Virus record (IMG/VR): IMGVR_UViG_3300045988_101454 | Span: 1 to 64,000 of that record | From: a virus | Length of the DNA: 64,000 bases | Strand: one strand, 5' to 3' | Part shown: positions 2,458-49,282 of the stretch, one piece after another | How positions within the stretch are numbered: position 1 is the first letter of the stretch | Layout: every line of letters starts with the position of its first letter | Made by a program: the position numbers and the translations under genes | Notes under the pieces: generated by a model | Seen by the model: the letters and a program-made list of their open reading frames with translations, nothing else | Database searches by the model: none | Told to the model about the DNA's origin: nothing

Positions 2458-3246
2458 TTAATAACCCTTCCAGAAGTAGGAGTGATGGCTATACTGGCTT
2501 AACGCCTTCTTTTTGGCAAACTCACGGATAGTGTAGTCGTAACCTTCCATCTTTTTCATGATAGCCTCCGCTTTTCGTGCCAGTCGCAGATAGGCTGCAT
2601 AACTCTTCTTGGTAGCCTTGAGATTTTCAATAGCCGCCAAACGGTCGTTTTTGTAAAACTCTATAACAGCAACCGCTTTTTCGGCTTCCAGGCGCTCGCC
2701 CGTATTCCACTGCCACTGTAAAGCAGGATATGATGTTTTTTTCCCGTGGCTCCAGTCTGCCGAGATCATTACGGATGGTCGATACTCTACATAACAGTTA
2801 CGGCTGTAACTTTCAAGCTCGAAGCTATATTGAGAGAACGAGTTATAGAAGCCTGTCGCCTCCTTCACGGCATCATGGAAGCGTTTATTCAGCACCTTGC
2901 CATCGAATCGTCGGCATACCTGAATAAGTCCGTCCAGGGCCTTGATTTCAAGTTTTCGGCGCTCTATCAATGCGTCCGCGTGCTTGCAATACTCCTTAAC
3001 CTCGTTGGCCTTCTTGTCGGCTTCATGCTTTTTTGCAGCCGCCATAAAGTCCGCCTCCGTACCAATGCTGTAAGCTTTTTCTTCCATACCATGCTCACGG
3101 CTAAACTGGTGAAACAAATCTATATACCTCTGCGCATCCTCCTTTGTGGCGAAGATGTTTACGAACTCTATGTTATCAGAAATCCACAGCCATACGTTGC
3201 CATCGCTGCATACCAATTTTTTTGCTTCTTCAAATATCTGGTTCAT
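2458..3246 (-). CDS. hypothetical protein (intact copy of the duplicated gene)
   Basis: 262-aa ORF. Long identical DNA stretches are shared with 1924..2385, for example around 2070-2135 versus 2940-3000. Confidence 0.7.
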   Translation of the reverse strand: MNQIFEEAKKLVCSDGNVWLWISDNIEFVNIFATKEDAQRYIDLFHQFSREHGMEEKAYSIGTEADFMAAAKKHEADKKANEVKEYCKHADALIERRKLEIKALDGLIQVCRRFDGKVLNKRFHDAVKEATGFYNSFSQYSFELESYSRNCYVEYRPSVMISADWSHGKKTSYPALQWQWNTGERLEAEKAVAVIEFYKNDRLAAIENLKATKKSYAAYLRLARKAEAIMKKMEGYDYTIREFAKKKALSQYSHHSYFWKGY

Positions 3247-9239: not shown

Positions 9240-9911
9240 CTAACTCCTAATAACTATCGCCCCTCGCTCCTCGTCGTAATCCACGCTAATTGCTTCGCAT
9301 CTCTCCGCTGCCTTGTTAGCTCTCTCCGTTGCCGTGTCCGCATCAGCCTTAGCCTTAACAGCGTTATCGGTAGCAGTATTAGCCTTAGCAGCAGCAGCGT
9401 CAGCCTTATCAGCCGAAGCGTTAGCCCTCTCCGTAGCCACATTCGCCTTCTCGATAGCCTCGTTTGCCCCCGTTATCAGGTTGCCAAGTTCTACGGTAGG
9501 AGGCAGCACCACAACAGCCGTGTCCATCTCCACGCTGTCCTCACCTTCTTGCGGTTCGAACACCGTATCACCCTGGGCATTGTTGTCAACAAGCATTATC
9601 TGTTCATACTCATTGCTTCGCCACGAGGAACCGAACAGCTTGCCCTTCACCTCAAGGGCATACGCGCCAAGAGCCATTTCCGAGCTTTGCACCCTCACCT
9701 CAAGCAGCGAGTCATCCTCCACGCCTATCGTATGCGCCATTCTTCTTCGGCGGAACGCATTAACAAGATTTACCTCCACCTCCTCGCAAGCAGGCAATGG
9801 AAACTTCTCCGCCTCTCCGCCCACAATCTTCCTTACCGGCACTCGCAACGTAAAATCGTTACCTCTTACTATCTTCTTCATAAAAGTCTGTTTTTTTAAT
9901 TCAAAACTCAA
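9240..9911 (-). CDS. tail-fibre-associated protein with Ala/Asn-rich coiled-coil segment
   Basis: 223-aa ORF; the start may instead be the ATG at 9881 (MKKIVRG). It has an ANEAIEKANVATERANASADKADAAAAKANTATDNAVKAKADADTATERANKAAE segment like the N-terminus of the DGR target. It ends GAIVIRS with a TAG-TAA tandem stop. Confidence 0.65.
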   Translation of the reverse strand: MSFELKKQTFMKKIVRGNDFTLRVPVRKIVGGEAEKFPLPACEEVEVNLVNAFRRRRMAHTIGVEDDSLLEVRVQSSEMALGAYALEVKGKLFGSSWRSNEYEQIMLVDNNAQGDTVFEPQEGEDSVEMDTAVVVLPPTVELGNLITGANEAIEKANVATERANASADKADAAAAKANTATDNAVKAKADADTATERANKAAERCEAISVDYDEERGAIVIRS

Positions 9912-9970: not shown

Positions 9971-10246
9971 CTAACTCCTAATTACTATTGCTCCTTTCTC
10001 CTCGTCAAACCCAATGTCAACCATACTCACCTTCTGTATCTGTGCCACCCACTCGTCACGAGTACCCGTATATCCACCAGCCTTCGCCACGTCATACGCG
10101 TCCTCGCCACGGAAGTCAGCACCCTCAACACGATAGCACTCCTGCGAGCCATCCTCCTTCGGACGGATAAGCAGCAGCGTGTCACCCGTCAGCACCTTGT
10201 CAGCCTTCGGCAGACTCAGCACATCAATAGTCTCAATACTTGCCAT
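9971..10246 (-). CDS. hypothetical protein sharing a C-terminal motif with 9240..9911
   Basis: 91-aa ORF ending DEEKGAIVIRS-TAG, compared with DEERGAIVIRS-TAG in the neighbouring gene. Confidence 0.55.
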   Translation of the reverse strand: MASIETIDVLSLPKADKVLTGDTLLLIRPKEDGSQECYRVEGADFRGEDAYDVAKAGGYTGTRDEWVAQIQKVSMVDIGFDEEKGAIVIRS

Positions 10247-10750: not shown

Positions 10751-11335
10751 TCAAACGTTCATCATCAGCACATCCGGGTACCCCTCCTTATAGTCGTACC
10801 CTAACACACTCTCCACCGTACTCATTTCGCTTACAGCTTTCTTATGTGCCGCCGTGACGTTGAAACACTCCAGGGCATACATCTCCAATGCCGACAGCAG
10901 CTGTATCGCCTTGTCGCACTCCACTACCAACTTCACATCGCCAAGCCACAGCGTAGTAGTCGGCTGTCCCATCGCCTTTGCGATTGTTGTAGAGTTCATC
11001 AGACCTACACGTGTCGCCTTGTCGAGCCACACACGCTGTCCGTTGAGGATAAAGCCATTAACGGCAGATGAAGTGTCGTGCTTATCAATCTCTGCAAGCA
11101 CCATCTTCTGTGCCGCAGCAGTAAGCGCAGCCTCCGAAGTCATGCCGCCCGTCTCCAGGCGCACACCGTCATACACCCACACCTTGCGCACCACCGCTTC
11201 GGTAGTCGCCAATCCGTTCTCGCCAGGCATACCACCCGAAATCTCCGTCTCCTCCTTGCCGTTGATAAGCAACAGTACAACACCATCGCCAACAGTCAGT
11301 CTTGGCTGTGCCTCGTCAAAATAATACTTCTCCAT
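10751..11335 (-). CDS. hypothetical protein downstream of the RT
   Basis: 194-aa ORF. There is a weak impression of a tail-fibre-accessory type protein, and it does not look like Avd. Confidence 0.55.
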   Translation of the reverse strand: MEKYYFDEAQPRLTVGDGVVLLLINGKEETEISGGMPGENGLATTEAVVRKVWVYDGVRLETGGMTSEAALTAAAQKMVLAEIDKHDTSSAVNGFILNGQRVWLDKATRVGLMNSTTIAKAMGQPTTTLWLGDVKLVVECDKAIQLLSALEMYALECFNVTAAHKKAVSEMSTVESVLGYDYKEGYPDVLMMNV

Positions 11336-11388: not shown

Positions 11389-12768
11389 TCAAATGTACTT
11401 CATCTGATTCGTTGAGCCCTCAAAGATATATCCGCACTCGTCCACAATCCTCACGTCCTCCAACGGCAGCAAGTTCTTCTTGCCATACTCCTGCTCCGCC
11501 GTCACCATCCAAGCCACGATACCCATCATGCCGCCGTGTACCTCCCTTGCCACAGTCTTGCCTGTCAGTTCTCCGTCGTCGGTCACTTCCGGCATACCTA
11601 TCAGCATCTTTATCCAGTTAGGCTCACCCGTCTTCTCGCTCTTGCGTATCTCGTAGTCAAAGACAGTAAACACCTGTCCGCTACGTGCCAGTTCCAGTGG
11701 CTTGATATTCGGAGCGTCCATCTTGCGGTCTATGCGTATCTTCTTTGTCAGTTCTCGTAGCTTCATATCTTTCTCAATTTTTACCATCTCTCCGAATCCG
11801 TCCGTATGGCGCATTAGTCCAAAGTAACTGCCCCAGGAATTGTCGTTGTCGCACATCCTCGCTCTCAGCAACGTATCTTTGCGTATAAGGCAAAATCCTT
11901 TGTTCGGGTCTGTCACGCTCTTGTCGGCGTTGCGTATAACTCTGTAGCCGCAGAAGTCAAGCCCTCGCTTGTCGTTGAGACTCGTCACCCTCGTGTCGCC
12001 ACGCTTAGCCCTTATGTCAAGTTCATACCACCAATATTGTCTTATCCGCCACTTCATCTGCTGTGCTTCTGCTCTCGTCCTACAAGCCACCATGCAGTTA
12101 TCGGCATAGCACAGCCGCCATTCAGTGTTTTGGCATAGCCATTCGTGAAATCTCAGCATCAGTATATGGTGAGCAAGCGGACTCGTCGGTGTGCCTACAG
12201 GCAGTTGTCCGTCAACAAAGCACAGCTCTACGGCAAAGTCTATCAGCCACTTGTCGCCAATAAGATATTTCAGTTCCTTACGCAGCATGCTCGGCTTCAC
12301 GTGCATATAGCATTGTCGTTGGTCGGCTGTAACTATCCAGTCCATCTCCCGCAGGTCGTAGAATAGATGTTTCACTCTCGGCAGCACATAGTTGCTTTTC
12401 AGTTCCTTGTGCTTCGCCGATGGTGTTATGCCACACCCTTCCTTGCAGTTGAGCGACACCAATGGGTCACGTCTACGATATATCGGCTCCAGTTTGTTCT
12501 TCAGCAAGTGTTCATACACTAAAGTTCTAAACGAAGGAGCGTCGATGTGCCTCACCTTCTTGTTGTTGTTCACCTTGGTCAGCTTACGATATTCGATGTC
12601 CTTACGCCAACTTCCATCTTTGAGATGTTGTTTAATACTTGCGCATAGCCCGTCTACATCCTTCAATGCCTCCTTCACCTCGGGTCGTTTCTTTCTGCCT
12701 TTTGCGGCACTCCACACAGCCTTTTCGTAATCGCCGGCAGTGAATGGTATGTAATTGGGTCTATGCAC
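11389..12768 (-). CDS. reverse transcriptase of a diversity-generating retroelement (atypical)
   Basis: RT motifs are visible in order: RHIDAPSFRTLVYEHLL, SLNCKEGCG, TADQRQCYMHV, LPVGTPTSPLAHH, LCYADNCMV and GLDFCGYRV. The gene lies directly 3' of a TR/VR pair. It apparently uses a GTG start and encodes 459 aa. Confidence 0.85.
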   Translation of the reverse strand: MHRPNYIPFTAGDYEKAVWSAAKGRKKRPEVKEALKDVDGLCASIKQHLKDGSWRKDIEYRKLTKVNNNKKVRHIDAPSFRTLVYEHLLKNKLEPIYRRRDPLVSLNCKEGCGITPSAKHKELKSNYVLPRVKHLFYDLREMDWIVTADQRQCYMHVKPSMLRKELKYLIGDKWLIDFAVELCFVDGQLPVGTPTSPLAHHILMLRFHEWLCQNTEWRLCYADNCMVACRTRAEAQQMKWRIRQYWWYELDIRAKRGDTRVTSLNDKRGLDFCGYRVIRNADKSVTDPNKGFCLIRKDTLLRARMCDNDNSWGSYFGLMRHTDGFGEMVKIEKDMKLRELTKKIRIDRKMDAPNIKPLELARSGQVFTVFDYEIRKSEKTGEPNWIKMLIGMPEVTDDGELTGKTVAREVHGGMMGIVAWMVTAEQEYGKKNLLPLEDVRIVDECGYIFEGSTNQMKYI

Positions 12769-12951
12769 GTTTGTTATATATGTTTTTATGCGGATTTCTC
12801 CGCTGTTGATATTCAGTGTCGGGCTAAAAAGTTGACGGAACTGTCTGTCCGTCAGAATGTCTCTCGGTCACGTCCGCTGCATCACGTACAGCCATCGTGC
12901 TACGCTCACATCCCTTGTCTTTGATAATCTCTGCTTCTCCTGAGCGAGAGT

Positions 12952-13115
12952 GGTGTTCCCGTGTTCTTAGTTCTGCATCTTTTATGATGCCCGACGTTGG
13001 GCAGAACCGCCATTATTCACGTTCGAGTTATTGACCGCATTGTTCGCATTGAGGTAGCGAGCTGAACAATTCGCATTATTCGCATTGCCACGAAAACGCA
13101 AGGCTCGGGAACACC
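12952..13115 (-). promoter_or_regulatory. 10-bp perfect inverted repeat bracketing the TR
   Basis: GGTGTTCCCG at 12952-12961 is the reverse complement of CGGGAACACC at 13106-13115. The latter starts at the first base after the TR/VR homology ends. Confidence 0.6.
12998..13105 (-). repeat. DGR template repeat (TR)
   Basis: 108 bp matching 13348-13455 at an offset of +350. All 12 differences are T on the plus strand, which is A on the coding strand. In the target frame the TR reads ALRFRGNANNANCSARYLNANNAVNNSNVNNGGSAQ. Confidence 0.9.
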
Positions 13116-13274
13116 AACCTCTTTAGCCATCATCTATATGGATGGCATCACCTCTCATGCAGGCTTCAGAGGCTTCGGCCCTCATGCCGAGCTTGTCCTG
13201 GTTTTGAGGAAATAGATTGTCTTTCTTCATCTTTCCTAATTCTTAACTTTTAACTCCTAACGTAACTCCAAAAT

Positions 13275-13298
13275 GGGCCCCGGTTGCACCGGGTGCCC
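13275..13298 (-). promoter_or_regulatory. GC-rich hairpin downstream of the VR (DGR target-recognition hairpin and/or terminator)
   Basis: GGGCC-CCGG-TTGCA-CCGG-GTGCCC forms a 9-bp stem with a 1-nt bulge. On the minus strand it is followed by ATTTTGG. It lies about 30 nt after the target stop codon. Confidence 0.5.
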
Positions 13299-13328
13299 AC
13301 GTTGCACGAAGTTGCACTTGGCTGCGCC

Positions 13329-15743
13329 CTATTGCACGATGCGACACTGGGCAGAACCGCCACTAGACACGCCCGAGTTATTGACCGCATGGTCCGCATC
13401 GAGGTAGCGAGCTGAACAATACGCATTAAGCGCATCGCCACGAAAACGCAAGGCTATGCGGGCACGCTGGTCAATGGTAGACGACCAGTAAGGGTATATG
13501 TCACCATAGTAGCACTGCCAGTTGGCGAGGTTGCCTCCTATCTCCACAGGCCACGGAGTAAAGCCTTTTCGGTTCTTTATGTAGCTGTTTGTCAACATAG
13601 GCGGACCGAAGGTACCAATCTTGCTGTATGCCTTTTCAAAGCCGAAGGTGCCGAGGTTGTTTCTTGTCGAGTCTGTCTCGTATGCCCACTTCTTCTGCTC
13701 AGGCTCAAGGTATATGTCGGAGAAGTTTACCTTCGCACGGTCAACAACGCTCGATGCGTTCGACTTGCAGGTGCCTACAATCTCACAGCCGCCGCCCCAA
13801 TAGGCCAAAATGTCTCCAACGATGTTCATACCTTGAATAAGGCTCATTCTCAGACTTAGCTCAAGGTCGTAGGTAGCCAATGTCTCGGCATCCTTATAGC
13901 CCTTGCAAGTGCCTGTCTTTTTACGGTATACTTTGCAGTTCATCAAGCCGTCTGCCAAGCCCTTCACACCTGTTATGTTCTTGTAGTGGTACATCACGCC
14001 GTACGCCTCGTATTCTGTGTCCTCGGCTATGCCAAACTCCGCTGCCCACGATGCCGCCATCTGACTCTCCATGCACTGTTCCTTCGGGCGGTAAAGGTTT
14101 ATGAAGTACGAGAAGTTCTGCTTCTCCATCTTGGCGTTGCAACCAAATGGCGTTGTCTGGTTAAACGGACGGTAAACCCAATCCTCGGTGCCTTGCTCCC
14201 TTGTCCTCACACCGCCATTGTTCAACCACGTGTCCTCATTGCTACAGCTGTCGTTAGACGATATGCCAGAGCCAAACAATCGGTTGTCGTGCAAATACTT
14301 TGTACCGTACAGCAGCTCCATACACATGATAAAGGTGTTGATAATATGATAACCGCCCTCTGCAAACGGCAGCGGCATTTTCGGGTCTGTATTATTGGCA
14401 CGGGCGTACTTCATGGTTGATATTTGGCTCATATCAGATACGCGAGGATATGTTCTGCCGTCGTTCACGTATATAGCGCACATCTCCTCTCCGTAGGCGC
14501 TTGCTCCGTTCGTGGTGTTTGGGTCTTTTACCGCATACGCAAAGAAGAAGTTGCGTGTCTTGTTGCCAACGGTCGTCACTGGGCATGGCGCCAGGGCTGT
14601 GCCAAGCAACGGAAACTTGCCAGTGTTGATGCCGTCATACTTCATCGGACGCTTGAACACTCCCGACAACACCTTGCCGCTCTCGCCAGTCTGACGGTCT
14701 ACGGGATAGATAGTGTCGTAGCGACCAATCAGCACCGAATACTTGGTATCTGTAGTCTCCCAAGGCAGCAACTGACGCACCTTGTTACCCTCTCCGTCGT
14801 ACAAGTCCACCAAGCCGAGCGAGTTGTACACCTCGGCAGCGTCATACGGATGCGCACCTGTCTTGTCCGTTACAACCACGCCGTTCTTCAATGTCAGCAT
14901 CTGTGTATGCTCCGCATCGGTATAGAGTTGTATATCACAAGCGGTACGCATCTCCTCAGTAATGCCCACGGTAGGAGCAAACGCACCCGTCACAAAGCGG
15001 AAGTGATTGTTGTCCATCAACTGACCTACAGGGTGTGTACCCTCGCCCGTGTTGTCGGTATGGTCGATAAGGAACGGATGCCAGTCGCCCAACACCTCCT
15101 TGTTGCCCTTGCCGTTCTTAAACTTAGGGCCGCCCGTCACCTCGTCGTTCTCGGCAACGTAGTAGTCCTTAACGTTCTCCTTCAGCTCCGCAATCTCCGC
15201 CGTGTTCTGCTCCACCTGCTTCGCCATCTCTGTTGCCGCAGCCTGCGACACCAGCTCCAACGATTTCTCGGCTCCAGTTCTGTCCGTCACCTTCAGAATA
15301 TTGTCGTCACCAAGCACAGCGTTCACCTTCTCGGCGGCAGCGGTAGCGTCGTTAGCCGCAGTCGTTGCAGCCTGTGCCGCCGATGTAGCGGCGTTGGCAG
15401 CCTTCGTAGCCTGGTTTGCCTCGCCAACAGCCGCCACCGTCGCCGTCTTGGCATCCATTGCCGCTTGAGCCGCTTTGTTGGCGGTAGTCGCAGCAGCATT
15501 AGCAGCCACCGTCGCAGCAGCCGCCAGGCTCTCCGCCTCGCTAAGGTCGATGCACTTGTTCCACCACGCAGTGTCCGTAAGCTGATGTCCCACGTTCTTG
15601 CCCGTCGCAGCGTCCACCTTAACGCTCACCCACACTGCCTTGCCGTCGCTAATGTAGTCAAGCCTCTCATACTCCCTCTCTGCCGACCATTCCGACCCTG
15701 CCGGAGTCAGCACAACCTTAATTACTTGCTCGTTGTTTGCCAT
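13329..15743 (-). CDS. DGR target protein; putative receptor-binding tail fibre with a variable C-terminal domain
   Basis: 804-aa ORF with an Ala/Thr/Asn-rich coiled-coil N-terminal region typical of fibres. The VR is at its extreme C-terminus. The stop codon is TAG at 13329-13331. Confidence 0.85.
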   Translation of the reverse strand: MANNEQVIKVVLTPAGSEWSAEREYERLDYISDGKAVWVSVKVDAATGKNVGHQLTDTAWWNKCIDLSEAESLAAAATVAANAAATTANKAAQAAMDAKTATVAAVGEANQATKAANAATSAAQAATTAANDATAAAEKVNAVLGDDNILKVTDRTGAEKSLELVSQAAATEMAKQVEQNTAEIAELKENVKDYYVAENDEVTGGPKFKNGKGNKEVLGDWHPFLIDHTDNTGEGTHPVGQLMDNNHFRFVTGAFAPTVGITEEMRTACDIQLYTDAEHTQMLTLKNGVVVTDKTGAHPYDAAEVYNSLGLVDLYDGEGNKVRQLLPWETTDTKYSVLIGRYDTIYPVDRQTGESGKVLSGVFKRPMKYDGINTGKFPLLGTALAPCPVTTVGNKTRNFFFAYAVKDPNTTNGASAYGEEMCAIYVNDGRTYPRVSDMSQISTMKYARANNTDPKMPLPFAEGGYHIINTFIMCMELLYGTKYLHDNRLFGSGISSNDSCSNEDTWLNNGGVRTREQGTEDWVYRPFNQTTPFGCNAKMEKQNFSYFINLYRPKEQCMESQMAASWAAEFGIAEDTEYEAYGVMYHYKNITGVKGLADGLMNCKVYRKKTGTCKGYKDAETLATYDLELSLRMSLIQGMNIVGDILAYWGGGCEIVGTCKSNASSVVDRAKVNFSDIYLEPEQKKWAYETDSTRNNLGTFGFEKAYSKIGTFGPPMLTNSYIKNRKGFTPWPVEIGGNLANWQCYYGDIYPYWSSTIDQRARIALRFRGDALNAYCSARYLDADHAVNNSGVSSGGSAQCRIVQ
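13348..13455 (-). repeat. DGR variable repeat (VR), 3' end of the target gene
   Basis: Encodes ALRFRGDALNAYCSARYLDADHAVNNSGVSSGGSAQ, which is residues -41 to -6 from the C-terminus of the 804-aa ORF. Confidence 0.9.
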
Positions 15744-15845
15744 ATCATTAAGTTTTTAAAAATTTATTCCCTAAAAAGCTATAGGATTTTTCACTTTTCA
15801 CTTTTCACTTTTTCACTTTCTACTTTTTACCTTTTTACCTTTTCC

Positions 15846-18800
15846 TTAATCAACAAGACTATGCCGCAAGCATCGCCACAACTCTCCGTCGAAAAACAGT
15901 TCAGAGTCTTGTACGAATTGGTCAAGGATACACGACCCATCGGTTTTATATACCACACCAATATTCTTTACGCCATAAGTGATATTTTTCCCGTTACCAT
16001 TTATTGTCACGGCAGATGCCCCTTTTATTATCTTATAGTATTGCCCAATCTCTGGGTCAGACGGCAGCGTCAGCGTCACACCAGCACGGCACACCACTAC
16101 ACACTCCATCTTGCTCAATGCTCTGTTGGCGGTAGCCACCGTCAGCATAGGGCGCATACCAGCAATGTCGCCCTTCGAGATAAACAGAGCATGGTTGCCG
16201 TTAGGCAAACTACTGCCTGCTATGTTTTGCAGCTCCCTGTGCTCAAGGTTCATCTTGCCCGATACACTCAGCATCATGCCGAGATTTACCTGCTGATAGT
16301 CGTAGGCGTCATTCCAGTTTTTTACCAAGTTCAAAAGCACACCACCTTGCTCATTCATTCCTCCAACACCGCTAAAGATGCCGTTGCCCATAACAAGGTC
16401 AAAGTTGTTGTCTCTACTTCTGAACACGATGTCAGAGCTGTTCAGGCACATATAGTCGGTCTCGCCAAGCGTGCCGTGCTTAAGGTAACTGGCGTCAATC
16501 TCAAAGCAGCCTATATAACCCTTTACCGCCTTCATCGCACCCGTGCTCGTAACATAGAACGGAGCATCCTTGGCAGTAGACGTACCCACAAACAGCGGAG
16601 CATACTCGCTGCCCACCTTGCAGGCATCCATCTCGTAGTTGCCAAAGTAGCCCACTTTATTCGTGCCGTCCTTGTTCACAGCCCATAGATGCTTCACGTT
16701 TATTAGGTCTGCGTTTAGTCCGTCCTCGTCAAACACCGCAACCTTCTTTCCCGTCCTCGTCCTGAACTTCGTCCTTTCCGCCGTCAAGGTCATCTCCTTG
16801 CTGTTGATGTCGATGCCAACTTCAAGCAAGGAAGCCAACATGCTTCTGTCTTCCACATAGTCGCTGCTCTCGGCAGTCCATTCCGTAGCCGTGGCACCCA
16901 CCTCAAGCTTTATTTGCGATACTAACAGCCTGCTGCCGGTAAACGTGCGCAACACAACAGCCTGTGGGAGCGAGTCGCCTATCACACGCCAATGAACGTA
17001 GTACATTTGCCATTTGCCCGAAACACTCATAAGTGCCTCGCCGTCTGGAGTTGAGGTGTTTATCACGTGTCCGCATATCTCCACCGCCACGTCAGGTGTA
17101 CCGTCGTTGTGCAAATAAGCGGCTATATGCGCATAGGCATCCGCATCGCTGTCACCCTTAGCCATAAACGACAGCATATAGTCCTGTCCCTGCTTTATCA
17201 CACCCTTGCCCGAGAGGTCCCAGGTCACGGTGTCAATCCTGCCGACAGCACCGCTTCTTATGTCCGTACACAGCGTAGCATAGCTGCCGTATCTGTCCGC
17301 ATCGCCCTCGCTCAAGAGCTTGGTAAAACTGCTGTTTACCGTCAGCCCGTCGCCGCTTGTCAAAGTGTCCGCCCTCGCAAGCAAGTTGCCGCCACGATAG
17401 TTGCAGTCCTCCTCCGACAGCGACCATCCTAAAAACTCGCTGCCCTCTGTCAGCATAGGCAAGGCAATGCGTGCGGTGTGCGCACCCGAGTAGATAAAGA
17501 CACAATCAGCATACACCGTCCTTGCGTCAAGCTCAAAGGTCTCGGTCATAAGGTTCCACCCCGTACTCATTTTCTTCGCCACCTCGCAGTATATGCTAAG
17601 ATTGTTGCCTATGTCGTTCATCTGTGCGTCCTTCTGCACGATATACACGCCAAAGTCACGATAAGCCACATCCCCGTCACACGCCAACATTGCGCTTACC
17701 GTATGTGTACGGTTTCTGCCAACCTTAACACGCAAGAAGTCAACACCTCTGTTCTTTCCCGTCGCTCCTTCTATCACCACAGCGTTAATGCCGTCATACT
17801 GATATACGGTCGTAATCCAAGGCTCATACGTGTCGTTGCCAGTCCACGATGCCTCCTTGCGCTTAAATGCAGTACCCGTAAGCAGGTTGAATCTGCCCTC
17901 GCTGCGCTGCCCAACCTTCAAGCTAAACTCCTTCGACGTCTGCTTGAAGGTGGTAAGGTCTGACTTCACTTCGCCAACAAGATTATTCGTCTCCTCTACC
18001 TTGCTCGTGACGCCATCCACGCTCACCTTAATGTCCGTAAATTTTTTCGACAACGTCATGCTGTTCCCGATGTCACCCGTGAACAGCATAAATTTGTCCG
18101 AGTTCACATACGTCATGGCAGGGCTCGCCAAGAACGTCAGGTCTCTCCACATATACACCTTGCTCAAGTCCTGTCTGTCGTTCACAATATCGTATCTGCC
18201 AATGCCATAATACATCGCAATCGCAGGAGCCGTGCCCGAAGCGTCGTCCTCCGTAGACGTCGACAACTTAATAGCGTTGCCCCTCGACAACCACTTCACC
18301 TGGTCGCCCACTTGCACAATCACGTCACCAGCCATAGGCGCACCAGGCTCGCCGCCACCCTTGACAGGCTCATAGCCAGCATAGTTGCGTCTGCTTACAG
18401 AGTTTTTCTTGTCGTCCATCTTTATGCCGTCCTGTTCAAGTACCGCCCCGAAGCTCGTCAGCCCACTCGCAGCAGCCACAGCCACGGCAGCACCGCCAAA
18501 GGTCAGCACCTTGCCCGTACCGTCGGCAAGCAGCTTCAAGCCATAGCTCGGAACAACTTCGTCCGTGCCGTTGAACCGCTCCACGTTGCTCAACACCACA
18601 TAGTCGTACAGCCTTCCGTCCTCAAGCGTCTCTTGACCCACAGCCACCACCAATCGCCAGTAGTAGCGGTTGGCAAGCTCGCCCTCTGTCTGCGCCTTAA
18701 CGTTAAAGGTCTGGCACATCGCCATCATGCCCGGTCGCCACCAGTTCATCGTCCTCGTCGTGCCGTCGTCGGCGGCAGCATAACACTTGTACGCAATCAC

Positions 18801-33454: not shown

Positions 33455-34630
33455 TTACTTAGCCTTAAAATTATATATCGGCTTGATGCGCTTCACGATG
33501 TTCACAGTGTCGCCTATCAGTTCTTCAATCTCCTCTGCCGACTTGTACGCCATTGGTGCTTCGTCGATGGTGGACTCGCATACCGATGTGGAGTAGATGT
33601 CGTGCATCTGTTGGCGGTATTCTTCCATGCTGAGCTGCTTCTTTGCTGCCGAGCGCGACATCAGTCTGCCTGCACCGTGCGGAGCCGACTGAAGCCAGTC
33701 GTCGTTGCCCTTGCCAGTACACAGCAGCGAACCGTCGCGCATGTTCAGAGGGATAATCAGAGGCTCGCCCTTCTTTGCGCTCACAGCTCCCTTGCGGATA
33801 ATGCCGAAGGTGTCGATGTAGTTGTGCATGGTGGTGAACACACGACCTGTAGACTTTAGTTCAAGACCTTTGATTATGGTTTGCGCCATAAGAAAACGGT
33901 TCAAGTCGGCATAATGCTGACACAAGCGCATGGCATCATAGTAATCGCCAAGCGTGGGACCGCTAATGTAGGCCATGTCTTTAGAAACGGGTTTCAACCG
34001 GCGCAGCGCATCGTTTATCTCGCTCTGTCTGCCCTGAGCTTTCAGTTCGGAAATGATACGTCCACGTTCCTCACTGTTGTTGCATTGTCTTGATGCCAAC
34101 TGCTGAAAATGTCGGCATATCTTTACGCCTAAATTGCGGCTACCCGAATGTACTACAAGATACTTGCGTCCTTCGTCGTCCACGTCCACCTCAATAAAGT
34201 GGTTGCCACCGCCAAGGGTGCCGAGCGAACGCAGTACATAGTCGAGGTCAAAATATTGCTTCCACGGAGGCAAAAAACACCATATTTCATTGTGCATAAG
34301 GGAAACCATCTCTGACGACAAACGCTTCTCATGCACATTGAATCCGCTTGGAATGTTGTCGTTGATGATACGGTCGAGAATCTCCATATCAATGTTGGCA
34401 AAGCCTAAATCCCACACGAGCATACCACAGCCGATGTCTACGCCCATGGTGTTGGGCACCACTTTGCCGCGGGTCTCAATCACGGTGCCTACGGTGCATC
34501 CCTTTCCGGCATGGCAATCGGGCATAATGCGAATCTTACAGTTGCGGTAAGCCTCGCTCTCTGCCATCTGCCTTACTTGCTCCTGGGCTTCAGGTTCAAT
34601 GGTCTTTGCAAAAATCTTTAAGTCACTCAT
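33455..34630 (-). CDS. rtcB: RtcB-family RNA 3'-phosphate ligase
   Basis: Characteristic RtcB metal and GTP ligand motifs are present: MPDCHAGKGCTVG, GVDIGCGM, GGGNHFIEV, VHSGSRNLG and APHGAGR. Confidence 0.9.
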   Translation of the reverse strand: MSDLKIFAKTIEPEAQEQVRQMAESEAYRNCKIRIMPDCHAGKGCTVGTVIETRGKVVPNTMGVDIGCGMLVWDLGFANIDMEILDRIINDNIPSGFNVHEKRLSSEMVSLMHNEIWCFLPPWKQYFDLDYVLRSLGTLGGGNHFIEVDVDDEGRKYLVVHSGSRNLGVKICRHFQQLASRQCNNSEERGRIISELKAQGRQSEINDALRRLKPVSKDMAYISGPTLGDYYDAMRLCQHYADLNRFLMAQTIIKGLELKSTGRVFTTMHNYIDTFGIIRKGAVSAKKGEPLIIPLNMRDGSLLCTGKGNDDWLQSAPHGAGRLMSRSAAKKQLSMEEYRQQMHDIYSTSVCESTIDEAPMAYKSAEEIEELIGDTVNIVKRIKPIYNFKAK

Positions 34631-48355: not shown

Positions 48356-49282
48356 TCAAGGTGGCGGTGTGAACTTCCCTTGCGACTCTTCGGCTACGGA
48401 AATGTATGGCACCACTTCGTCGCGAATGATGTCGAGGAAGATTTGTGCGGCTCGCTTCTTTGGTACGTCCTGCATACAGTGGGCGTTGCTCATCAACTGC
48501 TGTTCGAGTCCGACGATGGGACGCGCTACAAGGGTAGGGTGGTTGCGCAGGTAGAGCTTAGGCATGAAGGTTATATACTTGGTTTCTTCCACCGAAGCAA
48601 GAGCTTCGTCAGGGTCGCTGATGATGCACTTGATGTTGAGCTTATATAGGTCGCGCTGTATGTATTGCTGAAAAGTCTCAATGGCACGCTCGCCTACGTC
48701 GGGCATGATGATGGGGTGCTTCAGAATGTCCTCATACGACACCTTTGAGAGCGAGGCAAGCGGATGGGTGTCGCGCATGATAGCATACACATTAAAAGGT
48801 ATGCAGGGTCTCGACTCTATTCCTTCGTGGCGGTATGCCATATTCATAGTGAAAGCGAGGTCTAACATGTGCGCCCTTAGCGATTGATTAAGAAGGTATG
48901 CTTTGGTGAAGTCGGCATTGATACGCACGTTGGGGTATCTCTCTATGAATATCAATGCTGCCATACGGACGTACGGAGCAATAAACGAACCTACGCCTAT
49001 ACGCAATTCGCCGGTCATGCAGTTGTTGAGGGCGTTGATTTGCTCCTTACAGTCCTCGGTCTGCTTCAGTATTTCTTTGGCGCGAGGCAACAGGGCTTCG
49101 CCACTTTCGGTGAGCATAATGCCGTGTGATGTGCGGATAAGCAGTTTGCAGCCCAACTCGTCCTCCAGGGCACGAATGTGCTGGCTTACCGCCGACTGGG
49201 TGACGCAACAACGTGTGGCAGCCGTACTAAACGACTTTGTTTCGGCGACATAAACAAAGGAGCGTAAATGTCTTAGTTCCAT
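48356..49282 (-). CDS. LysR-family transcriptional regulator
   Basis: The N-terminal winged HTH MELRHLRSFVYVAETKSFSTAATRCCVTQSAVSQHIRALEDELGCKLLIRT is the canonical LysR signature. A ~200-aa substrate-binding-like domain follows. Confidence 0.9.
   Translation of the reverse strand: MELRHLRSFVYVAETKSFSTAATRCCVTQSAVSQHIRALEDELGCKLLIRTSHGIMLTESGEALLPRAKEILKQTEDCKEQINALNNCMTGELRIGVGSFIAPYVRMAALIFIERYPNVRINADFTKAYLLNQSLRAHMLDLAFTMNMAYRHEGIESRPCIPFNVYAIMRDTHPLASLSKVSYEDILKHPIIMPDVGERAIETFQQYIQRDLYKLNIKCIISDPDEALASVEETKYITFMPKLYLRNHPTLVARPIVGLEQQLMSNAHCMQDVPKKRAAQIFLDIIRDEVVPYISVAEESQGKFTPPP

Follow-up and report, generated by a model that had tools for sequence, protein, structure and literature searches.

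The diversity-generating retroelement (DGR) of BPP-1, whose Bordetella reverse transcriptase (bRT) has been solved together with Avd and RNA (PDB 8ub7), transfers adenine-specific changes from a template repeat (TR) to a variable repeat (VR) at the 3' end of a receptor-binding gene. An avd gene lies between target and TR and is required there. DGRs that lack avd have also been described. According to Wu et al. (2018, PMC5758913), they make up 26% of DGRs, Architecture A, which consists of TR and reverse transcriptase (RT) only, accounts for 29%, and the avd-less Lineage 3 contains a sub-lineage, 3A, which is confined to Bacteroides and relatives. A further point of reference is crAssE-Sib (OR575929), an epsilon crAss-like phage whose authors (PMC11054128) describe an unexpected GxxxSP motif in the RT, which makes myDGR miss the element, and a normal catalytic YxDD motif. 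Here we analyze a cassette with a GxxxSP-type RT and no avd in a 64,000-nucleotide (nt) stretch of virus DNA (positions 1-64,000 of IMG/VR record IMGVR_UViG_3300045988_101454, called the window below). The motif C of this RT reads YADN. We consider it very probable that the cassette is a functional and currently active DGR of a Bacteroidales phage, belonging to an RT family that is characterized by GTPxSP, by an acidic C-terminal domain of ~115 amino acids (aa) and by the absence of avd.

The Avd-less category of DGRs and the GxxxSP family are already known and are not new. What appears to be new is a recurrent, selectively maintained and functional YxDN active-site variant in DGR RTs; our literature search found no paper that links YADN to an RT motif. 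Apparently also new is the delineation, in the GxxxSP family, of a conserved acidic C-terminal domain and of a duplex flanking the TR.

Layout of the cassette and comparison with described DGRs

All parts of the cassette lie on the minus strand, in the order target gene with VR, a 236-nt gap, TR, a 223-nt spacer, and RT (Table 1). The VR forms the 3' end of the target gene, which ends with a stop codon at 13329-13331, and is oriented like TR and RT. Between the two repeats there are 14 mismatches, and at 13 of them the TR has an adenine. With a TR that is 25% A, at least 13 of 14 mismatches would fall on A by chance with a probability of ~2e-7 according to our own binomial estimate. The remaining mismatch, C>T, and the last A>G next to it are located at the extreme 3' end and are the same in both VR alleles found with this TR (see below). 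They are therefore fixed differences between the candidate initiation of mutagenic homing (IMH) sequence in the VR and its counterpart in the TR, IMH*, and not the result of mutagenesis. Adenine-biased differences between TR and VR were also found in nearly every related cassette with enough upstream DNA. The locus combines several features of a DGR: an A-specific TR/VR pair, a VR at the 3' end of the target, a bRT-like RT, and VRs that vary on a constant RT and TR.

The RT gene starts with GTG, which an earlier note on this DNA had given as the only in-frame start. Homologues, which have ATG at the homologous codon and begin with MHRP, agree with this start, as does the exact 459-aa product, which is recorded in five metagenome assemblies. 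Within the 560 nt between target and RT, which include the TR, coding-strand open reading frames (ORFs) are at most 39 aa long. The 35-aa ORF at 13123-13230, which had been named as the largest one in this interval, does exist, but a 39-aa ORF with a TTG start, overlapping the TR, is slightly longer.

The similarity to crAssE-Sib extends over the whole cassette. The two RTs are 44.6% identical over 99% of their length, including the C-terminal domain, and have the same GxxxSP finger motif. The elements follow each other in the same order (receptor-binding protein (RBP) with VR and IMH, TR with IMH*, RT), the crAssE-Sib record annotates no avd, and the same duplex flanks the TR. The targets are homologous as well: residues 206-802 of the window protein share 43% identity over 603 aa with the crAssE-Sib RBP (BLASTP E = 2e-150, L001 5359-7413), an alignment that covers window positions 13332-15131. 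The N-terminal ~200 aa of the target are unrelated to the crAssE-Sib RBP and show a weak PHROG tail-fibre match. Given the homology of the targets, the RBP (head), TR, and RT travel as one module between unrelated phage backbones. The traits of the crAssE-Sib-type family, namely GTPxSP, a C-terminal domain ending in CGYIFxGSTNQ, and the RBP-TR-RT layout, are all present in the window. In contrast, motif C is the canonical YADD in crAssE-Sib and YADN here, and the phage backbone is a different one; a megablast search of the cassette against 50,697 phage records yielded no match. Text searches in the crAssE-Sib paper (PMC11054128) yielded no reference to Avd and nothing on the C-terminal domain or on RNA structure.

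The variable domain of the target has no Pfam match, and its C-terminal 323 aa found no sequence match in the PDB. A C-type-lectin fold, as reported for the crAssE-Sib RBP (PMC11054128), may be carried over to the target from the 43% identity between the two proteins. Antisense to the target and to the neighbouring 1344-aa gene runs an unusually long ORF of 754 aa (14424-16688, plus strand), which is almost certainly a spurious shadow ORF. The hosts of the GxxxSP RT family are Bacteroidales, including Parabacteroides, Bacteroides, Phocaeicola, Prevotella, and a Caecibacteroides isolate scaffold.

BPP-1 provides the closest solved RT. The window cassette shares with it the A-specific transfer from TR to VR, a receptor-binding gene that ends in the VR, candidate IMH/IMH*-like ends, a duplex formed by sequences up- and downstream of the TR (the 'cPRT Stop' duplex in BPP-1), and the substitution of ~50% of adenines. 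However, the cassette has no avd gene and so departs from the canonical BPP-1-type Architecture B. Moreover, bRT comprises 328 aa with IGxxxSQ and YMDD, whereas the RT here, at 459 aa, has GTPTSP and YADN and carries an additional acidic domain. With the Avd-less DGRs of Wu et al. (Architecture A, Lineage 3/3A; PMC5758913), the cassette has in common a TR-RT core without avd and an occurrence in Bacteroides and relatives. The same survey reports C-terminal extensions of up to ~150 aa, without a recognisable motif, in ~20% of DGR RTs; in contrast to what is found here, the main text of that survey, as far as it was searched, mentions neither a YxDN variant nor GxxxSP.

Motif C and VR variation in YADN relatives

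An RT profile for PDB searching was built from 73 family members. The best solved relative was bRT (8ub7_A, profile E = 5.8e-11); the alignment joins profile positions 3-329 with residues 4-322 of the 328 in bRT. The AlphaFold2 (AF2) model of the RT has a mean predicted local distance difference test (pLDDT) score of 89.6 and was found by Foldseek to match bRT with a template modelling (TM) score of 0.79, normalised to bRT. In the family profile, PIGTPTSP falls on bRT PIGSLTSQ and YAD[D/N] on bRT YMDD, and YADN is therefore truly motif C. This alignment bears out the earlier note in its reading of YADN as motif C, its refuting alternative of a YxDD elsewhere in the protein not having materialized, in its reading of GTPTSP as a replacement of GxxxSQ, and in the C-terminal extension that it had described: the match to bRT ends at residue 329 of 459, and since residues 3-329 span the complete bRT, ~130 aa lie beyond the bRT thumb. 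GxxxSP is conserved throughout the family, and the [I/L/V]GxxxSQ pattern used by myDGR is absent; GxxxSQ is a diagnostic motif, not a mechanistic requirement.

The catalytic box thus reads YADN and not YxDD, with N224 in the place of the second catalytic Asp (bRT D216). Throughout the family, Asp149 (D149) of motif A and the first Asp of motif C, D223, do not vary, and position 224 is occupied by either D or N. In the cryo-EM structure of bRT, Mg2+ is located 2.2 and 2.3 Å from D138 and D215 (10.1101/2023.10.23.563531). The counterparts of these two residues are D149 and D223, and by analogy the second Asp of motif C would be less critical than they are.

As an alternative to an active enzyme, the earlier note had proposed that the RT was recently inactivated by a D-to-N change at position 224, the VR differences being relics of earlier activity. 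The Asn codon AAC is indeed one transition away from GAC, and a catalytic role is generally assigned to the second Asp of YxDD. Variation between samples speaks strongly against this proposal. Five independent metagenome assemblies encode the identical 459-aa YADN RT, and in four of the five, for which the upstream region is available, the TR is identical too. Two VR alleles occur on this identical RT and TR, one with 13 adenine substitutions in the window, L006, and L007, and a second one with 16 in L008 and L009, from other samples. The two alleles involve partly different adenines and carry the same fixed IMH differences. The RT P0005, which is 67% identical and also of the YADN type, is found with one TR and two VRs in two samples (L002, L003), with 14 of 14 and 15 of 16 differences at A. 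On a separate branch of the family tree, the YADN RT P0110 is combined with one TR and three VRs (9/9, 12/12, and 16/16 differences at A). Identical RT and TR are thus associated with different A-specific VRs in two unrelated YADN clades, by which recent inactivation is refuted.

The distribution of the Asn points in the same direction. All relatives within 57-100% RT identity retain it, encoded by AAC in some and by AAT in others, and the codons next to it also vary synonymously in the clade of the window RT (the query clade). All 14 IMG/VR contigs of the query clade have YADN at 83-96% RT identity, and 13 of these 14 cassettes contain a TR/VR pair with 8-21 adenine substitutions; no TR/VR pair was found in L029. 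The RT ORF is uninterrupted and clearly constrained. Among 120 homologues placed in a neighbour-joining tree, 92 have YADD, 24 YADN and one FADN, with Asn in at least six separate clades, and of the 16 best full-length members (representatives at 50% identity) five are YADN. Homologous RTs, which the earlier note had wished to see compared at this position, thus carry both forms, with YADN fixed in the query clade.

Mutational density is also the same in both groups. In pooled non-redundant TR/VR pairs, 51.0% of TR adenines are substituted with YADN RTs and 47.5% with YADD RTs, other TR bases differ at 1.3% and 1.55%, respectively, and the substitution spectra are alike. The density matches the ~50% adenine substitution reported for Bordetella and Bacteroides DGRs (PMC11601372). 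Taken together, these findings leave hardly any probability for a recent D224N inactivation. As judged from sequence comparison, Asn at the second catalytic position is a tolerated natural variant and not a lesion. A natural Asn in place of the second acidic residue of motif C is also found in the GDNQ motif of the L proteins of non-segmented negative-strand RNA viruses, whose polymerase is active. Such GDN-type enzymes are RNA-dependent RNA polymerases, unrelated in sequence and biology, and the likeness only makes the chemistry plausible.

Motifs of the YxDN type, for example FRYMDNIV, were also seen in six RTs outside the family (P0198, P0223, P0232, P0241, P0246, and P0262). These have a GxxxSQ-type finger, which in two of the six reads SH or LGxxxSQ, and several of them have long C-terminal extensions (440-488 aa).

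Absence of avd and the C-terminal domain of the RT

Profile searches of the window gave no sign of an accessory protein of the Avd type. For 65 window ORFs of 70-400 aa, the 25 families listed at E < 1e-3 included neither Avd (Pfam 23S_rRNA_IVP) nor HRDC, and neither was found at E ≤ 1 in ten small window ORFs, including basic soluble ones. Ten further ORFs of 344-1376 aa, including all those above 400 aa besides RT and target, yielded no Avd, HRDC, or second RT. Beside related RTs, likewise no Avd and no second RT were found. Of the 96 related loci, those with enough upstream DNA have the layout VR, 137-364 nt, TR, ~90-225 nt, RT; the gap between VR and TR is too short for avd or barely of its length, and the longest ORF in it has 59 aa. 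By gene content, the whole GxxxSP RT family is Avd-less.

The first gene after the RT encodes a DUF4376/tail-fibre-like protein, which is not Avd and is unlikely to be part of the DGR, and is followed by genes for a multi-transmembrane protein, small tail-like proteins, and lysozyme. The earlier note had reported that no Avd-sized ORF is present in the cassette and that the two genes after the RT do not look like Avd. Both statements hold, the former with the negative Avd/HRDC profile check in the scanned ORFs and the latter with one product that is acidic (pI 4.7) and another that is multi-transmembrane. Its suggestion of an Avd-independent DGR lineage is supported by the family-wide layout without avd, and such a lineage has been described before.

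In relatives, the genes after the RT encode an unrelated acidic protein of 137-148 aa, a holin-like protein, and an endolysin. The acidic protein (pI ~4.8; L002 7394-7840, L004 7377-7793, L005 1746-2159) is encoded by a gene whose start codon overlaps the stop codon of the RT gene, and in charge and size it recalls, by description, the acidic accessory gene CH1 of Avd-less Bacteroides DGRs. We considered it as a conserved accessory and rejected it, as it is absent from the window and has no family match. Also rejected was the 35-aa ORF as a mini-accessory, as it is open only in the closest clade and its conservation looks RNA-level.

A factor acting in trans, be it a divergent Avd or another accessory from the rest of the phage or from the Bacteroidales host, could make up for the missing gene, but we consider this improbable. 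In its favour, the window holds 64 kb of a phage and related contigs reach ~100-150 kb. Against it, no window ORF scanned gave an Avd or HRDC signal, and the RBP-TR-RT module occurs on unrelated backbones (an epsilon crAss-like phage, integrase prophages, and the window phage). The neighbouring genes differ on each of these backbones, which argues for a self-contained module. Bacteroides chromosomal DGRs encode Avd-like proteins (PMC11601372), which would favour a trans-acting factor; however, no remote avd was found in genomes whose DGRs lack avd, according to Wu et al. (PMC5758913). The acidic downstream gene, translationally coupled to the RT in some relatives and recalling CH1 by its charge, would be a candidate for such a factor, and it is this gene that the window does not have.

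The C-terminal part of the RT is more conspicuous. In the AF2 models, a long helix (residues 325-343) and a short low-confidence linker lead to a domain with a predicted alpha-beta-beta-beta-alpha fold plus a beta-hairpin. The domain contains the invariant motifs NWIK, EFHG, and CGYIFxGSTNQ, is present in essentially all full-length family members, and accounts for 16 of 52 invariant columns; with a mean majority frequency of 0.69 it is as conserved as the catalytic core. By this measure of conservation, the domain is an essential module. It is acidic (pI 4.9 ± 0.2, net charge ~-5), and the RT core is basic (pI ~9.5-9.7).

The domain has no Pfam match, and a Foldseek search of the PDB returned only insignificant SSB/OB-like matches (E ≥ 0.066, TM ≤ 0.33). 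Among BFVD models, convincing similarity was limited to C-termini of other phage RTs (E = 1.2e-5 and 1.2e-3). A relation to the double-stranded RNA-binding domain, which has a similar alpha-beta-beta-beta-alpha order, was considered and dropped, as the PDB fold search gave no support. A further idea was that the domain might represent CH1, the acidic accessory of Wu et al., fused to the RT. The 158-aa protein P0155, which looked like a stand-alone version of the domain, is the end piece of an RT from a close relative, split by an in-frame stop. At L097 995-2383, this stop divides the RT gene into ORFs of 301 and 158 aa, in a decaying copy or through an assembly error; stand-alone 'C-terminal domain' proteins in databases can therefore be fragments.

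It is possible, though doubtful, that the domain is a fused functional replacement of Avd, as the earlier note had suggested, which would hold the DGR RNA and/or stabilise the N-terminal extension of the RT. Avd of BPP-1 is basic, binds an RNA stem-loop, and contacts the N-terminal extension of bRT (10.1101/2023.10.23.563531), and bRT, which has no such domain, needs Avd. The replacement would fit the presence of the domain, with a conservation like that of the catalytic core, in essentially every full-length member of a uniformly avd-less family, and similar folds are found at the C-termini of other phage RTs. However, Avd is a strongly basic protein of ~110-130 aa (pI 9.5 ± 0.7; PMC5758913). 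It forms a pentamer of basic four-helix bundles, whereas the domain is acidic and has an alpha/beta fold, and it is therefore no simple Avd mimic. In addition, the domain has no structural or sequence relative of known function, and long extensions also occur in some RTs outside the family (PMC5758913), so that an extension need not imply the loss of Avd.

The RNA around the TR, proposed mechanism and neighbouring genes

In the window, an 11-bp duplex encloses the TR (Table 1). We scored the best ungapped pairing between two zones flanking the TR against 100 shuffles. In most of 49 non-redundant cassettes, a duplex of 8-16 bp, usually 11-16 bp, occupies the corresponding position; for 39 of all 49, 0-1 of 100 shuffles reach its score. 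Overall, ~17 different sequence pairs form the duplex at a constant position, which amounts to strong covariation. The duplex resembles the 'cPRT Stop' duplex of the BPP-1 DGR RNA, to which it may correspond. Handa et al. found that duplex in 207 Avd-containing DGRs; here it is conserved without Avd. Just upstream, the hairpin at 13126-13146 covaries as well, reading GUUGCC/GGCAAC in L002 and GCCGAU/AUCGGC in L004. A search of positions 12500-13600 against Rfam gave no family match.

Table 1. Features of the DGR cassette and adjacent sequence, with positions in the window.
Feature	Position	Strand	Basis
DGR target, receptor-binding/tail-fibre protein, 804 aa	13329-15743	-	ORF listing; BLASTP
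VR, 114 nt, encodes last ~40 aa of target	13342-13455	-	Repeat comparison with TR
Candidate IMH, G+C-rich 3' end of VR, GGCGGTTCTGCCCAGTGTCG	13342-13361	-	Analogy with BPP-1 and crAssE-Sib
G+C-rich, singly bulged hairpin (stem 11 bp, loop 3 nt), 43 nt downstream of VR	13274-13299	-	DNA fold
35-aa ORF in VR-TR gap; too small and too acidic for Avd	13123-13230	-	Comparison with relatives
RNA hairpin GCCAUC…GAUGGC, just upstream of TR-flanking duplex	13126-13146	-	Covariation
5' duplex strand UGGUGUUCCCG, immediately 5' of TR	13106-13116	-	Pairs with 12951-12961
TR, 114 nt, 29 adenines	12992-13105	-	Repeat comparison with VR
Putative IMH* counterpart in TR, …CCCAACGTCG	12992-13011	-	Analogy with BPP-1 and crAssE-Sib
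TR-RT spacer, presumed structured 'Sp'-like part of DGR RNA	12769-12991	-	RNA fold, z = -2.08
3' duplex strand CGGGAACACCA, 30 nt downstream of TR	12951-12961	-	Pairs with 13106-13116
RT, 459 aa, GTG start	11389-12768	-	ORF; Pfam RVT_1
Finger motif PVGTPTSP (GxxxSP)	12178-12201	-	Aligned to bRT PIGSLTSQ
Motif C YADN, Y221 A222 D223 N224 (TAT GCC GAT AAC)	12097-12108	-	Aligned to bRT YMDD
C-terminal domain of RT, residues ~347-459	11392-11730	-	AF2 models
194-aa acidic DUF4376/tail-fibre-like protein, first gene after RT	10751-11335	-	Pfam DUF4376; PHROG tail fibre; pI 4.7

The 35-aa ORF overlaps this hairpin. None of the 16 sequence variants in the close clade interrupts it, and its core, MRAEASEACMRGDA, is conserved; at ~65% RT identity it is lost in L004 and truncated in L002; the nucleotides CUGAAGCCUGCAUGAGAGGUGAUG and the covarying hairpin persist there. 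As nucleotides and hairpin outlast the reading frame, the region 13123-13230 is more likely conserved as RNA than as a peptide, and the ORF is probably covered by the 5' portion of the DGR RNA. On the other side of the TR, base pairing is possible between GCAGAAC in the spacer (12966-12972) and the TR 3' end, GGUUCUGC. The pairing is seen in the query clade only; the pair GGUUCUGC/GCAGAACU becomes GGCUCUGC/GCAGAGCU in L004. By analogy, the pairing recalls the TR:Sp template-primer duplex. A further hairpin, at 13274-13299, may play the part that the target-recognition hairpin has in BPP-1; DNA folding of the 91-nt stretch that contains it gave z = -2.16 for the window sequence alone.

From these elements, the following mechanism can be proposed. 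A transcript of positions ~13230-12769 would fold such that the covarying duplex encloses the TR. The RT would copy the TR into cDNA, misincorporating opposite adenines, and the cDNA would replace the VR at the 3' end of the RBP gene. Priming would proceed by RNA-scaffolded, cis-primed reverse transcription as in BPP-1, and the C-terminal domain would supply whatever makes Avd unnecessary. As a tentative extension of this mechanism, the second Asp of YxDD would be dispensable in DGR RTs, and Asn in its place would sustain normal adenine-specific retrohoming in vivo; this Asn, fixed repeatedly in Bacteroidales phage DGRs and occasionally in IGxxxSQ-type RTs, may alter the handling of metal or dNTPs, with the acidic fold taking away the need for an Avd pentamer. 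The result would be a two-component DGR, self-contained with an RNA and one protein, which common detection tools miss.

Several points weigh against an active, self-sufficient DGR of this kind. Mutation of the second Asp of YxDD inactivates retroviral RTs, which makes an active YADN enzyme unexpected; it might need other metal conditions. Its activity is deduced from samples that differ in the VR. For cis-priming and the priming nucleotide, BPP-1 serves as a model by analogy only, and the pairing between spacer and TR 3' end, which we considered as a general priming duplex, is convincing in the query clade only. The C-terminal domain offers no functional hint through Pfam or PDB matches, and its acidic charge argues against simple nucleic-acid binding. 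Finally, an accessory factor may be encoded beyond the 64-kb window or by the host.

The cassette has consequences in several respects. Finders that require GxxxSQ, and annotators who expect YxDD, will overlook this abundant family of gut phages or take it for inactive. The textbook view that both aspartates of motif C are essential is challenged by a naturally active YxDN RT, which provides a natural experiment on the palm active site in relation to selective infidelity at adenines. The covarying duplex suggests that the RNA-guided start/stop logic of BPP-1 is kept without Avd, which narrows down what Avd is needed for. For engineering, a DGR of one protein and an RNA would be a simpler hypermutation chassis than the bRT-Avd system used in E. 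coli.

Other genes in the window, those at 48356-49282 and 33455-34630 among them, encode a full LysR-family regulator (HTH_1 plus LysR_substrate), an RtcB RNA ligase, ThyX, two DNA methylases, guanylate kinase, a GNAT acetyltransferase, and a MazG-like pyrophosphatase. Two adjacent minus-strand genes (1924-2385 and 2458-3246) encode proteins with near-identical N-termini, MRQIFVEAQNLICSDGEVWLWKSE and MNQIFEEAKKLVCSDGNVWLWISD, and form a tandem paralogue pair. Two neighbouring small tail-like proteins of 223 and 91 aa (9240-9911 and 9971-10246, minus strand) end in a common peptide, E(E/R)(K/G)GAIVIRS, which suggests a C-terminal docking or assembly motif.

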